Shown piece by piece: positions 3,439-39,667 of a stretch of DNA of 44,781 bases. The notes under the pieces were generated by a model. The model searched no databases. It was not told the DNA's origin and saw only the letters and a program-made list of their open reading frames with translations. Made by a program: the position numbers and the translations under genes. This DNA comes from a virus. Within the stretch, counting starts at the first letter, position 1, and the number at the start of each line of letters is the position of its first letter. The stretch lies in UHGV virus genome UHGV-0214457, one strand, 5' to 3'.

Positions 3439-4075
3439 TCGGTGGCTGCATTACTAACTCCTTATCTGGATGTTCTTTCAGCTTTTTAATTGTTTCATTT
3501 GCCTGGGAATTAGTCATATCATGAATATCAGTCAGTCCATACTTTGATAGCACATTCTTAATCCCTATTCCTGTCCGTTTCAGCTCCAGGAATATTTCAT
3601 TGATATCAGATTCAGTAATCAAATCTGGACTATTCTGCTTGTTATATTTAGTTCTATCTGAATCCCAATAAACATCAGCACCAATTCCAAGCTGCTTACA
3701 CGCTACCGATATAGCATCTGTGGTTGCCATTTTATAGCATTCGTCCGAAACATATATGCCGGATTTCTCTTTTGATGCAAACATGCTGCCGCCGTTTCCG
3801 GGAATTGGTTTAGACCATTCCCCGTCAACCTTTATGTATAATTCGATATCCACAAAAGCCGCTATCTCATTTCCTGATGTTTCTAACCACTTTCGTGTAG
3901 GTATGTAGTACCACCCTATCCCACATGGCCCGAACTGCTCAGTAAGGACTTTTATGCGCCACATAGGGTTAATATCGGTCATACCGCTGGTACGACCTCC
4001 CTTAATGGTTTTCTTAGCGCTATCTGGAACAGAACGGACCTTTTGGTATAAGTCAAGATTTTCCATACACAACAC
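3392..4075 (-). CDS. single-strand annealing protein (ERF/Rad52-like recombinase)
   Basis: motif TTDAISVACKQLGIGADVYW; sits directly before a Gp157-family gene, as in Sak/ERF modules. Confidence 0.6.
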   Translation of the reverse strand: MLCMENLDLYQKVRSVPDSAKKTIKGGRTSGMTDINPMWRIKVLTEQFGPCGIGWYYIPTRKWLETSGNEIAAFVDIELYIKVDGEWSKPIPGNGGSMFASKEKSGIYVSDECYKMATTDAISVACKQLGIGADVYWDSDRTKYNKQNSPDLITESDINEIFLELKRTGIGIKNVLSKYGLTDIHDMTNSQANETIKKLKEHPDKELVMQPPNDMQDSELPWNDPKR

Positions 4076-6066: not shown

Positions 6067-6100
6067 ATAGTTTCTCCTTTTCCATAGTTAAATGTTAAGT

Positions 6101-6190
6101 TGGCGGCGGCCGGAGTCGAACCGGCACCCTCTTACTTTCCACCATGGTTATGCCAGGAATCGAACCTGGACCTGTGTGCCACACACCGCC
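6101..6190 (-). tRNA. 90-nt tRNA-like RNA (class-II-like or atypical): 7-bp acceptor stem plus two consensus T-arm hairpins; anticodon unresolved
   Basis: minus-strand sequence GGCGGTG...CCAGGTTCGATTCCTGG...GCCGGTTCGACTCCGGC CGCCGCC A; acceptor 5'-GGCGGTG pairs with CGCCGCC-3' (6 G-C and 1 G-U), discriminator A, CCA not encoded. Confidence 0.5.
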
Positions 6191-6191
6191 A

Positions 6192-6290
6192 TTAACTCTT
6201 AAAATACTGGTAAAGCGCTATTGCTATAATTATTAGTATCTCTGCAAAAACAGTGCAAACAACTCCTGCTAAAAATGGATTGATGTACAT
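6192..6290 (-). CDS. 32-aa hydrophobic peptide MYINPFLAGVVCTVFAEILIIIAIALYQYFKS (membrane peptide; type I toxin-like or holin-like)
   Basis: AGGAGA RBS 7 nt upstream of the ATG; a single TM-like helix; absent from the ORF track because it is under 60 aa. Confidence 0.35.
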   Translation of the reverse strand: MYINPFLAGVVCTVFAEILIIIAIALYQYFKS

Positions 6291-6339: not shown

Positions 6340-6606
6340 TTAATCCTGGCTCTCTGTCCCATTCTCTAAGTCTCCTTGTGTTCCTGTATTGATGTTGTTC
6401 AGTCCAGTGCCATCCTGGGAAACATAGTCATATGTACCCGCGGTATAAAGCCATGCAGCATTGGTGCCTATCAGCGCCGCCAGTGTTACCAGGAACACTA
6501 TAAACCAATGCTTTGCATTCCTCTTGCTCTGCTCGATTACCTCTACAGCAAAATACTGCTCCAGCCCTTCCCATGTTGGCTTGTCCTTCTGGTTTTCAAT
6601 GTTCAT
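6340..6606 (-). CDS. small membrane protein (88 aa, one TM)
   Basis: HWFIVFLVTLAALIGTNAAWLY hydrophobic segment. Confidence 0.45.
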   Translation of the reverse strand: MNIENQKDKPTWEGLEQYFAVEVIEQSKRNAKHWFIVFLVTLAALIGTNAAWLYTAGTYDYVSQDGTGLNNINTGTQGDLENGTESQD

Positions 6607-6660: not shown

Positions 6661-6741
6661 GTATCCGCATTAGTTTGGGTAATGTGTGATACTGGGGTTA
6701 TCTGTGTTCGAGACAGGTAGCCCCACTTTTATTTTCTTTCC
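6661..6741 (+). ncRNA. candidate small RNA: sigma-A-like promoter (TTGCGT-17-TAAAAT at 6626-6654) followed by a rho-independent terminator (6694-6741)
   Basis: read directly; stem GGGGTTATCTGT/ACAGGTAGCCCC followed by ACTTTTATTTTCTTTCC; no plausible ORF between them; antisense to the 3' end of 6698..7030. Confidence 0.35.
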
Positions 6742-7030
6742 TTGCTTCTGCGACTTCCTTTATTAAGAAGTCCAGCCACGGATATTTCTCTGATTGCATA
6801 TGTACAAGTTCATCAAACGATTTATCACTAAGTGATATGCAATCATTATAAAATTGAGTTCCTAATAAAATAGTCTTTCCTCCTTTTTCGCATCTTCCTG
6901 CGAAAATCCAATGCTTGTCTTTTTTCTCCCCCTGTCCTATACTGTATTTATAGGCGTTGCCGCGCCAAGTACATAAGAAAGGAGATAATATGTCTGAAAA
7001 CGCACTGTTGCTTCTTCGTAAAATGGCCAA
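6698..7030 (-). CDS. hypothetical protein (doubtful start)
   Basis: ORF with a TTG start and no RBS; overlaps the plus-strand gene 6990..7196. Confidence 0.3.
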   Translation of the reverse strand: MAILRRSNSAFSDILSPFLCTWRGNAYKYSIGQGEKKDKHWIFAGRCEKGGKTILLGTQFYNDCISLSDKSFDELVHMQSEKYPWLDFLIKEVAEARKENKSGATCLEHR

Positions 7031-7196
7031 TGAATTTGATAAAACGAAGCGTCAATCTTTTGATTCTGATTTTTATATTGCTTTCTCTGATAGAATTATT
7101 AATGAATTAGAATCATATGGATATATCATTTGCCGAAATGATGTTATAGCTTCAATAGAATTAACGTCTGCCGGATACGAAAAGGCAACCAATTAA
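6990..7196 (+). CDS. hypothetical 68-aa protein with its own promoter (moron-like)
   Basis: AGGAGA RBS plus ATG at 6990; promoter TTGTCT-17-TATACT at 6915-6943. Confidence 0.45.
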   Translation: MSENALLLLRKMANEFDKTKRQSFDSDFYIAFSDRIINELESYGYIICRNDVIASIELTSAGYEKATN

Positions 7197-7577: not shown

Positions 7578-8315
7578 TTACTGATTTCTTCCATTTTCCC
7601 TCCTTAAAAACTTGTTGATAAAATACTGCTGACCTTTTCCAGTAACTTTGGTGGTCTTGTTTATTCTTACGGAGCCATCAGGATTATTCACTGTACTTTC
7701 CTTCACCTCAAACAATCCTGCCTCCATACTGCGTTGTGTTGGCATATTCCATTCAGAACCATTCCGTTTAATCAGATAGCCATTATCTCTCAACCAAGAA
7801 AATAACCTTTTCTGTCCGATATCTACGCCGTTTTGTTTAATCAGCTTCGCCAAGTCACCAATAAGGATTGATGTATGACTAGTTGCCACAGCATCGGCAA
7901 ATATCTCTTTAGGCTTCATGCGTTGTACATCCTCTAAGAGTACAGTGTTTTGTGATTTTAGTTTGTCAATGGTCTTTCCAGCCATTTTCAAAGCCCTAGC
8001 CATGACCTGTTCCGGTGTATTCCATGCTTTCTCTAAGTCAAGGAAATACTGGCGGTACTGTCTGCCTTTTTCGGAACGTTGTATCATACAAATCTGTTTT
8101 GCCATGTCTACGGAAATCTCAAAATCTGTTGCCGGCCTACCTCCTGTACTTTCTTCCATTTTTGGAAAAAAGTCTTTTTCAGCTTCAAAACCATACTCAC
8201 ACATACGGTCAAACCATGTCGTGAAGTTGCTCTTAATTTCCAGTCCCTCATGCAACTCTCTTGCCGATACTGTCGGCTGTTCAGCATCGTAATTGATTTT
8301 TATAATTTCTTCCAT
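7578..8315 (-). CDS. phage antirepressor (AntA-like N-terminal domain, KilAC/ORF6C C-terminal domain)
   Basis: N-terminal ELHEGLEIKSNFTTWFDRMCEYGF, C-terminal AVATSHTSILIGDLAKLIKQNGVDIGQKRLFSWLRDNGYL. Confidence 0.7.
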   Translation of the reverse strand: MEEIIKINYDAEQPTVSARELHEGLEIKSNFTTWFDRMCEYGFEAEKDFFPKMEESTGGRPATDFEISVDMAKQICMIQRSEKGRQYRQYFLDLEKAWNTPEQVMARALKMAGKTIDKLKSQNTVLLEDVQRMKPKEIFADAVATSHTSILIGDLAKLIKQNGVDIGQKRLFSWLRDNGYLIKRNGSEWNMPTQRSMEAGLFEVKESTVNNPDGSVRINKTTKVTGKGQQYFINKFLRRENGRNQ

Positions 8316-8555: not shown

Positions 8556-8584
8556 TTGACATTAGGTTGAAAATATTCTATAAT
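8556..8584 (+). promoter_or_regulatory. consensus sigma-A promoter TTGACA-17-TATAAT facing the cI-like gene
   Basis: read directly. Confidence 0.45.
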
Positions 8585-8632: not shown

Positions 8633-8714
8633 TTTGCGTATTTTTTTCAACGTCATAATTATATTATACGTTATATTTTCAATATGTCAATAGTATTTGC
8701 GTATTTTTTTCAAC
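8633..8714. promoter_or_regulatory. two copies of the 19-bp TTTGCGTATTTTTTTCAAC plus related TATTTTCAA half-sites in the cro/cI intergenic region (candidate operators)
   Basis: read directly at 8633-8651 and 8696-8714. Confidence 0.45.
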
Positions 8715-9330: not shown

Positions 9331-10022
9331 GCATTAAGGGCGCTTCGCAAGAGTTATTTGTAGGAAAAAAGGATTCTAAAATTATAGACTTGTTTGGAAA
9401 TTCTACAAAAATTTCTTACTCAGATTTAAAAAAAATTGAGTATTGCTATTTTCAAATTGGCGTAGGTGGTGGATATCTGGATTTTGTTTATGATTCAAAT
9501 AATGTAAAACGTTTTGACTTTAATCATAAAGCAAATGATAAAATAAGAAGAACTATTGAACTAATACAAGAAAATAATCCAGAATTAGAAATTATTGAAC
9601 ATTCTACTGAAGATTATAAATTCTATCAAAAGGATTGGTTTTATCTTCTAATGCTTTTTATTTGTTGTATGCCTTTAGGTTTGTTTTTAATGTGGTATTA
9701 CAAAAAAGGCACAAAATCAATGCGAATTATACTTACGGTTTTATTTATAACTTTATGGGGCATTGGGATATTTTCATCATGGCCACGCACTTACAGTTAT
9801 CACATAACACTGAATGAATATAATCAATGTACTACTGGAATGACATACCAAGAATGTGTAAATATAATTGGTGGAGAAGGAGAACCTATGGCAGAAACTA
9901 ATATTTTAGACATTAATTCTACCGCATACATATGGTATGGAGATGATTCATCAGGAGCTAATGCAACGATGTATTTTACAAATGGAAAATTGACTTCAAA
10001 AGCCCAATTTGGTTTGAAATAA
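9321..10022 (+). CDS. membrane protein: N-terminal cytoplasmic bPH-like domain, 2 TM, C-terminal extracytoplasmic BLIP-like domain (lysogeny-module accessory)
   Basis: TM segments WFYLLMLFICCMPLGLFLMWYY and ILTVLFITLWGIGIFSSW; C-terminal GMTYQECVNIIGGEGEP...YIWYGD...MYFTNGKLTSKAQ. Confidence 0.5.
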   Translation: MFMSIKGASQELFVGKKDSKIIDLFGNSTKISYSDLKKIEYCYFQIGVGGGYLDFVYDSNNVKRFDFNHKANDKIRRTIELIQENNPELEIIEHSTEDYKFYQKDWFYLLMLFICCMPLGLFLMWYYKKGTKSMRIILTVLFITLWGIGIFSSWPRTYSYHITLNEYNQCTTGMTYQECVNIIGGEGEPMAETNILDINSTAYIWYGDDSSGANATMYFTNGKLTSKAQFGLK

Positions 10023-10170: not shown

Positions 10171-11259
10171 TTGAAGGAGGAAAGAGAAGTGACTACAAAA
10201 GCCCCGAAAAAGAAAAAAGGAGAACTACCATCCAAAAATATCCGCGTACAATTATACTTATATACGGATGAAAAAGGTAAACGACATTACAAAAGTTTTG
10301 TTGCCCCATCACGAAAAATCGCACAAGAAATGGCAGCTAGATGGAAATTAGATATGAAGGACAAGCCCATAGAACAATACAACGTACCGGAAGAGGACGA
10401 AGAAGATATTACAGTTAATGATGCTATTGAACGCTATTTAAGCGCCAAGAGCGGTGTTTTAAGCCCTTCTACGCTTAGAGGGTACACTGGTCTACAAAGA
10501 CAGTATTTCGGCGGCGCATTTGGCCAAAAAAAGCTTTCTGAACTGACAAGTCCAGCTGTACAAATATGGGTAAGTAATTTAGCTGCAAAAAAATTATCTC
10601 CAAAGACGGTGAGAAATGCCTATGGTCTGTTATCTCCAACGCTGGAAATGTTTGCACCCGAATTAACTTTAAACGTTAAACTGCCGCAGAAAAAACGTCC
10701 TAACTTATATTGCCCAAATGACAATGATATTAAAAAGTTGCTGGACGCTATTAAAGGCACTGATTTGGAGATAGCTGTATTACTGGCTGCGTTTGGTCCA
10801 CTTAGGAGAGGGGAGATAAGCGCTCTAACCGATAAGGACGTGGATGGAAAAATTATCCATGTAAGAGATAATATGGTCAAGGGGCCAGACAATCAATGGT
10901 ACATCAAACAGCCAAAGACGGATGATAGTACACGGGATGTAGAAATGCCAGCATTTGTAATTGACCGGATATCTGAAAAAAAAGGAAAGCTGGTTGATAT
11001 GAACCCGGATTACATCACACACCGATTCGGGCGAGTACTCAAAAAGATTGACATACCCCATTTCCGCTTTCACGACCTACGGCATTATGCCGCATCCATT
11101 ATGCACGCTATAGGGATACCGGACCAATATATTTTGCAGCGGGGAGGATGGGCCAGCGATAATATTATGAAAACCGTATACAGAAATGCAATTGACTCTG
11201 AAACCGTCCGGCAAAATAAAAAAATTAATAAGCACTTTGAAAAATTGAACAGTATGTAA
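10171..11259 (+). CDS. int: tyrosine integrase (phage integrase family); probable GTG start at 10189
   Basis: C-terminal catalytic motifs HDLRHYAAS...LQRGGWAS...VYRNA; N-terminal SAM/AP2-like domain; AGGAGG RBS before GTG at 10189. Confidence 0.85.
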   Translation: MKEEREVTTKAPKKKKGELPSKNIRVQLYLYTDEKGKRHYKSFVAPSRKIAQEMAARWKLDMKDKPIEQYNVPEEDEEDITVNDAIERYLSAKSGVLSPSTLRGYTGLQRQYFGGAFGQKKLSELTSPAVQIWVSNLAAKKLSPKTVRNAYGLLSPTLEMFAPELTLNVKLPQKKRPNLYCPNDNDIKKLLDAIKGTDLEIAVLLAAFGPLRRGEISALTDKDVDGKIIHVRDNMVKGPDNQWYIKQPKTDDSTRDVEMPAFVIDRISEKKGKLVDMNPDYITHRFGRVLKKIDIPHFRFHDLRHYAASIMHAIGIPDQYILQRGGWASDNIMKTVYRNAIDSETVRQNKKINKHFEKLNSM

Positions 11260-27112: not shown

Positions 27113-27308
27113 TGATGATTCTCCTTTTCCGTTATTAGGTTATTTGTAGGTGTGTAACCGTCCACCAACGGTTGCCATTTTGTAGGACTTGACTTGTCCA
27201 AAAACGCACATGCCGGAAATTGCATCCGCTTTTCAACCTCCAGGCTGTTCACGCTATGCGCTAGAACCTGTTTCTTTTAAGGACATGTGCTATAGGAGGG
27301 AGGTCAAT

Positions 27309-38445: not shown

Positions 38446-39492
38446 CTACACATTAACTCTTTCTCTTACTGAACGAAGAGTGCGCGGGTTAGACTGTGCA
38501 TAATAACGTGCCGTAACTCCTGGGTCTGCATGTCCCATAATTTCCTGTATGGTCCCAATATCAACTCCTCTATTTTTCAGATTCATTCCCAGCGTCTTGC
38601 GTGACTTATGCGGATATACCCGGCATGTTAGTTCAGCTCTCTTTCTTATGGTTTTCAATATCGCCCGAAATCCACAAGTAGTCATCTTTCCATACGGTTT
38701 TCTGGAGCGTGGGAACATATATAGACAATCATCTTTCCTGCTGTCCAAATACAGGCCATAATAATGCCGCGCATCATCATCCAGATAGATTGTGCGATAT
38801 TTTCCGCTTTTCTCTCCCTGTATACATATGTCGCCGGTTCTCATATCTACCTGGTCCAAGGCTATTTCCGCAATTTCTCCTATCCTGGCCCCAGTACTGC
38901 GCAGCACCTCCAACAATGCTCTCTCCCGGATATTTTTACATGCATCTCTTAATCTTGCTGATTCTTCCGGGTTGTAATAGTCTATAGGCTTAACTGGGAC
39001 TTTTTTAGCAGGTATAGACTCTACGGGATTATCTGTAATAAGCTTTTCAAGACGCATCCATGTAAAGAATGCCGACAGAAAACGGCGCTCGTTATTATAA
39101 GTACTGGGCTGGTTTTTCTTACCACCACTGGACACATTTCTAATTTCATACCGCGATAAATACCAATCAATATCCGTGGTATCCATCTGATCCAGTGATT
39201 TTGTGCTTATCTCTGTCAGCAATCTTCGTATGGCGTTAAGATAGTTTTCTTTGGTTCCTCTTGCTAAATCGCGTTTTTTGACCAGGAATAATTGTATTAT
39301 GTACTGATTCCTCTGGCTTATATCATCCTTTCTTTCTGCTGGAAGTGTAGTTATTTCCTCCATATTCACCCTTACTAATTCCTGCTGCATTACATTTTGA
39401 AGAATGGTAAGAGTCTGCTGCTCCATGATATATAAGGACATTGCTACCAGTACATTGTTGATTATTTCAGCTTTTATTGTCTGTGTACTCAT
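38446..39492 (-). CDS. second tyrosine recombinase (phage integrase/XerC-like); probable ATG at 39492, 349 aa
   Basis: RIGEIAEI...HKSRKT...MGHADPGVTARYY catalytic motifs; GAGGAGG RBS before the ATG; the track ORF extends to a GTG at 39594. Confidence 0.75.
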   Translation of the reverse strand: MSTQTIKAEIINNVLVAMSLYIMEQQTLTILQNVMQQELVRVNMEEITTLPAERKDDISQRNQYIIQLFLVKKRDLARGTKENYLNAIRRLLTEISTKSLDQMDTTDIDWYLSRYEIRNVSSGGKKNQPSTYNNERRFLSAFFTWMRLEKLITDNPVESIPAKKVPVKPIDYYNPEESARLRDACKNIRERALLEVLRSTGARIGEIAEIALDQVDMRTGDICIQGEKSGKYRTIYLDDDARHYYGLYLDSRKDDCLYMFPRSRKPYGKMTTCGFRAILKTIRKRAELTCRVYPHKSRKTLGMNLKNRGVDIGTIQEIMGHADPGVTARYYAQSNPRTLRSVRERVNV

Positions 39493-39523
39493 AATTATAT
39501 CCTCCTCATTCGTATTGATTTTC

Positions 39524-39555
39524 ACGTCTGAGTAAGGTATAATATACTCAGACGT
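39524..39555. promoter_or_regulatory. perfect 11-bp inverted repeat ACGTCTGAGTA-N10-TACTCAGACGT directly upstream of the second recombinase gene (recombination core site or operator)
   Basis: read directly; the spacer contains TATAAT. Confidence 0.5.
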
Positions 39556-39667
39556 ATTTACGGGAGCGGCGGAATCATCTTGGCGGGTGACCACCGCTCA
39601 GTTTTTATTCTGTGCATATAATTTTTTCCTCAATTTGTTTTTTCTTAGGTTATAAAATTTCAGTTTG

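Follow-up and report, generated by a model that had tools for sequence, protein, structure and literature searches.

A probable gene for a double-T-arm tRNA mimic in the early region of a temperate gut phage

A short stretch of viral DNA that has the ends of a transfer RNA (tRNA) and two T-arms raises the question of what kind of gene, if any, it represents. The stretch occupies positions 6101-6190, minus strand, of the virus genome UHGV-0214457, which was analysed here over its full length of 44,781 nucleotides (nt), referred to as the window. A preliminary description of this 90-nt element (one acceptor stem, two T-arm hairpins and no D or anticodon arm) is accurate in every detail, and the readings it had listed included a class-II tRNA, a fused or duplicated tRNA remnant and a tRNA-like decoy. 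The locus carries a conserved, strand-specific and covarying tRNA-minihelix fold with a second T-arm, placed within an early polycistronic unit. The reading favoured here, at a probability of roughly 0.6, is that it is the gene for a non-decoding small RNA processed in the manner of a tRNA, a 'double-T-arm tRNA mimic'; since it has no anticodon arm, the element cannot decode.

On the minus strand, 6101-6190 reads GGCGGUG-UGUGGCACACAGGU-CCAGG/UUCGAUU/CCUGG-CAUAACCAUGGUGGAAAGUAAGAGGGU-GCCGG/UUCGACU/CCGGC-CGCCGCC-A. The termini form seven pairs (six Watson-Crick and U6.G85) between the acceptor 5' strand GGCGGUG (6184..6190, RNA positions 1-7) and the 3' strand CGCCGCC (6102-6108), followed by an unpaired discriminator A (6101) that is invariant in the family. 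T-arm 1 (CCAGG-UUCGAUU-CCUGG, 6153..6169, positions 22-38) and T-arm 2 (GCCGG-UUCGACU-CCGGC, 6109..6125, positions 66-82) each consist of a stem of 5 base pairs (bp) with a G-C closing pair and a 7-nt loop of the form UUCRANY, and T-arm 2 lies directly against the acceptor 3' strand with a spacer of 0, as in the T-arm of a tRNA. Upstream of T-arm 1 runs a 14-nt 5' linker, UGUGGCACACAGGU (6170..6183, positions 8-21), in which U8, G11, G12 and A14 are invariant. Between the two T-arms, where neither a D arm nor an anticodon arm can be drawn in the window element, lie the junction CAUAA (6148..6152, positions 39-43), the piece CC-AUGGU-GG (6139..6147, positions 44-52), which is the core of a widely shared AACCAUGGUGG motif, and the conserved, single-stranded segment AAAGUAAGAGGGU (6126..6138, positions 53-65). 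The element is preceded by the 5' leader UUAAU (6191..6195; family consensus UUARU), which holds the stop codon of an upstream open reading frame (ORF) of 32 amino acids (aa), and is followed by the 3' trailer ACUU (6097..6100), CCA not being encoded. The acceptor stem and T-arm 2 add up to a minihelix of 7 + 5 bp without spacer, or 12 bp, with U at position -1 and no encoded CCA, a geometry that appears compatible with the substrate class of RNase P, RNase Z and CCA-adding enzymes.

Single T-loop-like hairpins are not rare, four occurring in the window against 1.7 per dinucleotide-preserving shuffle. The compound anatomy, defined as two T-loop-like hairpins less than 60 nt apart inside a perfect 7-bp stem that touches the second hairpin, appeared in one of 300 such shuffles (mean 0.0033 per window).

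Relatives were found by pattern scans of IMG/VR contigs, which yielded 41 copies on 40 viral contigs, representing 13 distinct sequences of 90-103 nt; in annotated phage genomes no relative was found except generic T-arm matches. Twelve copies (variant B) have CGGGG-UUCAACU-CCCCG as T-arm 1 and not CCAGG-UUCGAUU-CCUGG, and eleven (C variants) carry an extra hairpin of 5-6 bp straight after T-arm 1, at the CAUAA junction, with stems CAGUC/GACUG, CGGUC/GACUG or CGGCC/GG(U)CCG according to sub-variant. Divergent lineages, with different acceptor and T-stems, are L104/L137 (74 bits with the covariance model R1), in which A-CCA is encoded at the acceptor 3' end, and L004 (39.5 bits). One contig, L122, holds two paralogous copies 2.4 kb apart that differ in T-arm 1 (7052-7141, variant A; 9522-9612, variant B), the first of them flanked on both sides by methyltransferase-like genes.

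In an alignment of 18 loci with 200-nt flanks, identity is 96-100% within the element, about 80% in the upstream coding DNA and 13-55% downstream, falling to 0.13-0.6 from about 10 nt past the discriminator. Directly past the ACUU trailer, conservation drops from 0.81 to 0.13 across the next 10 nt. The leader columns -5 to -1 are likewise conserved among the 41 copies (T 0.95, T 1.00, A 0.95, R, T 0.95), with divergence further upstream, and the trailer is identical in 100% of them. The conserved block of about 99 nt is made up of the UUARU leader, the 90-nt core and the ACUU trailer, and its limits, at -5 and +94, coincide with the stem ends. This block is under stronger purifying selection than its flanks. 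RNase P usually prefers a U just 5' of the site that it cleaves, and U is what stands at -1.

These data bear on the proposal that the locus is a non-functional remnant of a tRNA gene duplication or rearrangement, fused or duplicated as the preliminary description had it. The sequence CAUAACC-A past T-arm 1 does resemble a degenerate acceptor 3' strand, and in one contig (L142) a similar extension comes after an ordinary tRNA. A relic of this kind is nevertheless hardly credible, as the block is conserved above the adjacent coding DNA, has edges at the stem ends, carries compensatory substitutions and recurs in many gene contexts and in divergent lineages.

Covariation was assessed on a 14-sequence alignment over the acceptor, T-arm 1, the inserted hairpin and T-arm 2, following an earlier test with 12 sequences. 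Across the four stems 98.5% of the cells are paired and eight pairs have changed on both sides, a level of pairing and compensation reached by 0 of 500 shuffles, while slid registers are 22-53% paired. The acceptor is 98% paired, with compensatory changes across lineages in four of its seven pairs and the U6.G wobble in 13 of the 14 sequences. T-arm 1 is 98.6% paired and compensatory at two of five pairs (CCAGG/CCUGG, CGGGG/CCCCG, GAGGG/CCCUG and CACGG/CCGUG), the inserted hairpin covaries at 95.8% pairing (CAGUC/GACUG versus CGGCC/GG(U)CCG), and T-arm 2 is paired at 100% with one compensatory pair. The covarying stems were not imposed by the search, given that T-arm 1 was free in one pattern and the acceptor strands figured in none. 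Compensatory changes in all three stems thus bear out the view of the element as tRNA-like but non-canonical, with one acceptor stem and two genuine T-arms.

The pairing is also strand-specific. U6.G and the G.U pairs of the inserted hairpin are possible on the minus strand only, where the minimum free energy (MFE) is -34.6 kcal/mol, compared with -29.9 kcal/mol on the plus strand. Strand-restricted G.U pairs argue for an RNA and against a double-stranded DNA site. They weigh on the proposal of an element acting at the DNA level, as a recombination target or boundary such as a homing-endonuclease site or a hotspot of module exchange, for which the sharp mosaic junction at +94, the many gene contexts, the two copies in L122 and the precedent of T4 SegB, which recognises DNA encoding a conserved tRNA motif (PMC2330249), can be cited. 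Compensatory changes maintain the strand-specific pairing, G.U being A.C on the other strand, and both loops follow T-loop rules and not a fixed DNA sequence; among the copies there is no consistently adjacent endonuclease gene, and homologous recombination alone predicts mosaic junctions beside any highly conserved segment. A DNA-level role is accordingly regarded as quite improbable. An attP core was also considered and rejected, as the element lies in the early operon, away from both integrase genes, and also possesses a 5' acceptor strand that matches the 3' strand and covaries with it.

The loops themselves decide whether T-arm 1 is a T-arm or an anticodon arm. In the 41 copies the loop of T-arm 1 is UUCGAUU (22), UUCAACU (18) or UUCGACU (1) and that of T-arm 2 is UUCGACU (33), UUCAAGU (7) or UUCAACU (1), UUCGAUU also being among the variants recorded. 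Variation is restricted to R57, N59 and Y60, and the G53-C61 closing pair is retained in both arms. A real decoding tRNA of aberrant fold, with T-arm 1 as anticodon arm (CGA, Ser), could appeal to the 5-bp stem, the 7-nt loop and the U at position 33, and this is how ARAGORN interprets an unrelated double-T element (L038). However, the supposed anticodon is CAA in 18 of 41 copies, among them those of variant B, with the rest unchanged; position 37 is U or C and never a purine, the T-arm-specific G53-C61 pair is kept and a D arm is absent. ARAGORN is silent at the family loci tested, and the Rfam tRNA model stays below threshold and aligns the acceptor and T-arm 2 only. The decoding reading is effectively refuted, and the class-II tRNA-Ser(CGA) that had been put forward as an alternative is rejected, T-arm 1 varying as a T-loop does.

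Searches for known RNA families are in line with this. ARAGORN reports 0 tRNA or tmRNA (transfer-messenger RNA) genes in the whole window, and this lack of a cloverleaf speaks against a tRNA in the strict sense while leaving a functional tRNA-like RNA unrefuted. With Rfam 15 at gathering scores, no family falls on the element, and the only ones found in the window are RAGATH-21 (27205-27291, 83.5 bits) and GP20-b (27136-27199, 40.9 bits), about 21 kb off, which are adjacent to each other on the minus strand just upstream of structural genes. In a permissive local scan the Rfam tRNA model (RF00005) reaches 26.1 bits against a cut-off of 29, its alignment being limited to the acceptor stem plus T-arm 2, with the 51 nt between them left out. 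The mascRNA model scores 22.1 bits (cut-off 42.5) on the 5' half of the element only, Deinococcus_Y_RNA, the only Y-RNA match, 15.2 bits (gathering score 80), and tmRNA_permuted 9.5-9.9 bits confined to the T-arms; these weak mascRNA, Y RNA and tmRNA matches are T-arm similarity only. The relatives L104, L004, L118, L192 and L197 likewise have no Rfam family at the element positions. Of the canonical tRNA features, the element has a 7-bp acceptor with discriminator and a 5-bp T-arm touching the acceptor 3' strand, and fails on the D arm, an anticodon arm with purine 37 and detection by tRNA finders or Rfam. The element remains below every family threshold and is not a canonical tRNA.

The near-invariant unpaired bases comprise, apart from the four linker positions, AACC-AUGGU-GG past T-arm 1 and AGUAAGA before T-arm 2, the latter retained even in the distant relative L104. 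The 5' linker is proposed, from its sequence, to be a stem-poor analogue of a D-loop that would cap T-loop 2, and CC[AUGGU]GG may tentatively be taken as a D-arm-like mini hairpin whose GG would cap T-loop 1, so that the two GG-containing pieces could act as D-loop analogues, one for each T-loop, and produce two tRNA 'elbows'. A possible mini hairpin in the linker, GUGU-GGC-ACAC, has a counterpart in L004 (CUCU-GGC-AGAG) and is not consistently retained. Counterparts of CC[AUGGU]GG are CCC[UUUGGU]GGG in L104, CCC[UUGGAC]GGG in L004 and CU[GUGG]GG in L181, and in L191, L196 and L199 AUGGU is the loop of a 7-bp hairpin, GACAACC[AUGGU]GGUUGUC. In these three contigs (L191, at about 1790-1840) that hairpin stands 10 nt past a T-arm, and its loop ATG could be a start codon.

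Several other roles for these segments were considered and set aside. The long MFE helix H2 (13-21 with 43-51) is 89.6% paired, has no compensatory support and lacks its outer part in the L180-type variant; its inner part, GGU:ACC, is possible. A T-box-like interaction of UGGU with an ACCA end, be it that of the RNA itself or of another tRNA, disagrees with L180 and L181, which have GUGGGG with the same discriminator, and with L192, which keeps UGGUGG with discriminator U. Dimerisation through the ACCAUGGU palindrome was dropped as the palindrome is not retained in variants, and a mini-tmRNA with a short tag ending at the UAA of AGUAAGA as the frame is not conserved. An antisense regulator of phage genes, comparable to P1 C4 controlling ant, finds no complementary site in the window, and no complement of AAAGUAAGAGGGU occurs elsewhere in it.

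The element is not isolated among phage RNAs. A 'T-arm + UUAACCAUGGUGG' arrangement is shared with RNAs of about 130-150 nt from L118/L193/L198, L192/L194/L195 and L197 (L118 at about 3445-3575, L192 at about 8010-8140), in which one acceptor stem surrounds three T-arms and an extra hairpin and which also carry the AACCAUGGUGG motif. Compensatory changes affect 11 of the 28 predicted pairs of these three-T-arm RNAs, and Rfam does not recognise them. More generally, two T-loops 25-45 nt apart have 123 viral occurrences, 29 of them with a perfect enclosing 7-bp stem, for which the chance expectation is about 6 on the rough estimate of (6/16)^7 per offset times 45 offsets. Ten of these have a short 5' linker like that of the window element; ARAGORN calls one of the ten, and half lie less than 1 kb from tRNA genes. 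Relatives in other phages sit in tRNA gene clusters. The window element thus looks like a compact member of what would be a heterogeneous, uncurated set of multi-T-arm, tRNA-like phage RNAs.

Further tRNA-like genes were noted on the contigs involved. L118 encodes at 7989-8069, on the same contig as its three-T-arm RNA, an 81-nt RNA that exceeds the gathering score of Rfam for tmRNA (47 bits), with 60.1 and 51.6 bits, and is made up of a tRNA-like domain with G3.U70 and a short helix 2 only, the tag region being absent. An acceptor stem AGUCAGG/CCUGACU is common to several tRNA or tRNA-like genes (L066 12357-12442 and 13264-13356; L092, L017, L020, L012 and L074), including a double-T-arm element and a gene that ARAGORN calls tRNA-Ile. 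In L142 (4399-4530, a Saccharibacteria metagenome-assembled genome) an ordinary tRNA-Met(CAT) runs straight into UGGUGGG-UAAGUAAGACU, after which come an imperfect T-arm and CACCUGCA. This extension is very similar to the 3' half of the relative L104 and may be a clue to the origin of the architecture.

The window represents a temperate siphovirus whose portal protein shares 58% identity with the portal of Blautia phage Montmirail and 63-69% with those of unannotated human-faecal phages. It encodes a terminase, an endolysin-type peptidase, a C5 methylase and two tyrosine recombinases, whose Phage_integrase genes (10171-11259, plus strand; 38446-39594, minus strand) both lie within the 44.8 kb. 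Two perfect, divergent sigma-70 promoters are present at 8556-8584 (plus; TTGACA-17-TATAAT) and 8690-8663 (minus; TTGACA-16-TATAAT), and this pair is probably the lysis/lysogeny switch that would drive the early operon with the element. The order of this minus-strand operon is Ant (7578-8315), small ORFs, the element, a 136-aa protein, Gam, an exonuclease, a DnaD-like and a DnaC-like protein. In the same region a 13-bp terminator-like hairpin with a T-run (6693-6725, plus strand) stands amid minus-strand genes only, in the gap between ORFs 6340-6606 and 6698-7030 and slightly overlapping the start of the second of these; its role may be to halt transcription that is antisense or convergent.

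A scan for promoters and terminators found neither flanking the element. Every copy lies 1-13 nt past a same-strand stop codon and about 9-39 nt ahead of the next start, and the neighbouring genes of the copies come from many unrelated clusters. This tight fit between varying same-strand neighbours indicates that the element is self-contained and portable and does not serve as leader to any one gene. A rival reading is a purely cis-acting 'tRNA punctuation', in which the fold would recruit RNase P and RNase Z to cut the early mRNA between the Ant-side cistrons and those for recombination and replication further downstream, and the excised RNA would have no function. The absence of its own promoter and terminator, the position tightly between same-strand ORFs in every copy, and the conserved U(-1) and trailer all agree with such a device, and tRNA-like elements are known to serve the end maturation of other RNAs (PMC4810234). 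A minihelix with one elbow would however suffice for this task, leaving the second T-arm, the single-stranded AACCAUGGUGG and AGUAAGA, all near-invariant even in distant lineages, unexplained, and the three-T-arm relatives occur in tRNA arrays, where there is no need to separate mRNAs. Punctuation as the sole function is thus considered unlikely.

In the double-T-arm mimic favoured here, cutting and function would go together. RNase P, RNase Z (on CCA-less precursors) and CCA-adding enzymes recognise, and measure between, the elbow and the acceptor arm (PMC4810234), and RNase P also cleaves a bacterial Y RNA that is tRNA-like and has an acceptor-like stem of 7 bp, CCA being added to this RNA as well (PMC4201824). 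By analogy, the element would share a transcript with the early genes, initiated at the promoter at about 8663-8690, and the acceptor/T-arm 2 unit, with the G11G12 linker as its cap, would be taken for a pre-tRNA. Cleavage is predicted ahead of G1 by RNase P and behind A90 by RNase Z, and a CCA-adding enzyme would supply CCA, releasing a stable RNA of about 93 nt and splitting the early mRNA at that point. T-arm 1 and the AUGGU mini hairpin would form a second knob resembling a tRNA elbow. The U(-1) found in 95% of the copies, the conserved CCA-less trailer, the A-CCA encoded in L104/L137 and the relatives within tRNA clusters are all consistent with processing of the tRNA type.

That the second T-arm and the single-stranded motifs hardly vary implies a specific partner in addition to the processing enzymes, and the absence of an anticodon arm means that what this partner reads should be the body or the 3' end of tRNA. 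On a more speculative level, the mature RNA could work in trans, either mimicking tRNA or serving as a decoy, towards a host factor that recognises the acceptor end, the T-arm or the elbow and not the anticodon, candidate targets being processing or modification enzymes and toxins that attack the tRNA 3' end. A decoy for factors of this type is possible, and a decoy or sponge role would be plausible for an early region of accessory genes; a decoy for anticodon nucleases is unlikely because the anticodon arm is absent. A bolder version, offered tentatively and thought doubtful, is that the element belongs to an undescribed 'multi-elbow' class of tRNA mimics in which one acceptor stem carries two or three modules of T-arm plus GG-loop. 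Such RNAs would be matured by the tRNA-processing machinery and would, in trans, occupy or misdirect a host factor that binds the tRNA body, for instance as an early counter-defence against toxins that cleave or modify tRNA away from the anticodon.

A number of points weigh against the tRNA-mimic interpretation. We infer transcription, processing and CCA addition alike, and a complementary target for the element is absent from the phage window. A search of species-representative genomes gave no prophage copy, the 16 matches there all being ordinary tRNAs with a chance motif behind them. The core family is near-clonal, with an effective sequence number of 1.14, so that the covariation rests on some 4-5 independent lineages (B, C/C2, L104 and L004). 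Single-sequence folding energy is no better than that of shuffles (z = -0.77) and therefore uninformative, which leaves significance to the motif combination, conservation and covariation. As to the proposed caps, the natural variants G9A and U10C break the linker hairpin, CC[AUGGU]GG has no double compensatory change in the sequences compared, and a competing pairing, GGU(19-21):ACC(43-45), is predicted in relatives.

RNAs with two or three T-arms are invisible to tRNA finders and Rfam and are missed in current phage annotation, a gap that a covariance model for multi-T-arm RNAs would fill. Should the RNA be processed and prove stable, temperate gut phages with hosts of the Lachnospiraceae type would be showing the non-decoding face of tRNA twice, early in the lytic phase. 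A host target that reads the tRNA elbow or acceptor arm would then be indicated, together with a concrete handle for finding it, and the locus would provide a natural case of tRNA-type punctuation within the mRNA of a bacterial virus.

Among known systems, the tRNA-like domain of tmRNA shares with the window element a 7-bp acceptor stacked without a gap on a canonical T-arm, a 5' linker with GG but no stem in place of the D arm, an interior unlike that of tRNA and, presumably, tRNA-like processing. It differs in that the window element has no G3.U70 (the alanine identity pair), pseudoknots, tag frame or SmpB context and has a second T-arm as its interior. A rival reading along these lines is an aminoacylatable acceptor or minihelix, which a host synthetase that reads acceptor stem and discriminator only would charge and which would be used outside decoding, for instance as a sink or substrate for EF-Tu or for enzymes dependent on aminoacyl-tRNA. 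The full 7-bp stem stacked on a canonical T-arm, A73, the U6.G67 wobble, the resemblance of the linker to the D-loop analogue of tmRNA and the occurrence of a tmRNA-like RNA reduced to its tRNA domain in a phage that also carries a three-T-arm relative would fit this idea; C3-G70 in place of G3.U70, tmRNA models that match the T-arms only (9.9 bits), a tag frame that is not conserved, a segment length that differs between variants and an identity set that cannot be assigned make it a rather improbable one, slightly more so than a DNA-level role.

The Y RNA YrlA (PMC4201824) resembles the element in being non-decoding, in having a canonical T-arm and a D-like hairpin and in being present in phages too. 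In Mycobacterium smegmatis, YrlA has the 7-bp acceptor-like stem, is cut by RNase P and has CCA added (PMC4201824). Its order of T, AS and D may tentatively be seen mirrored in the C variants as T-arm 1, the covarying hairpin and CC[AUGGU]GG, the window copy being without the middle hairpin. YrlA differs in having one T-arm, an open Ro60-binding stem with GNCGAA and an adjacent Ro60 (TROVE) gene, features that are missing from the window element; no TROVE domain was found in the ten large window ORFs scanned, which include every ORF of 380-620 aa.

Phage T4 RNA species I and II have tRNA-like ends. The T4 tRNA gene region encodes these stable 'RNA species I and II' (PMC2330249), which, compared by description, are likewise small stable phage RNAs associated with tRNA genes and matured by the tRNA-processing machinery, as the window element would be; two T-arms are not reported for them, and T4 is a virulent coliphage whereas the window comes from a temperate gut phage of Firmicute type. 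The mascRNA and menRNA, derived from MALAT1 and MEN-beta, are non-decoding tRNA-like folds inside longer transcripts, from which RNase P and RNase Z release them and to which CCA is then added, a course predicted here as well. They are eukaryotic and, alongside a D arm and a shortened anticodon arm, have only one T-arm.

Viral tRNA mimicry is well known from the 3' ends of RNA viruses, and tmRNA and Y RNAs are also familiar tRNA mimics. Among the 10,006 candidate structured RNAs (csRNAs) of phages catalogued in 2023 is DNAVirus_6258, an 86-nt csRNA of Lachnospiraceae phages from the human gut that is highly expressed in small-RNA sequencing and to which the catalogue assigns neither architecture nor function (PMC10690425); likened to the window element by habitat, host group and size class only, it might be identical to it. 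The literature yielded no tRNA-like RNA whose single acceptor stem holds two or three T-arms, nor was a precedent found under the terms tRNA-like decoy or T-large. Matured tRNA mimics as such are already known, and what is new in the window element is the design, in which the D and anticodon arms are dropped and the T-arm is doubled or, in the larger relatives, tripled.

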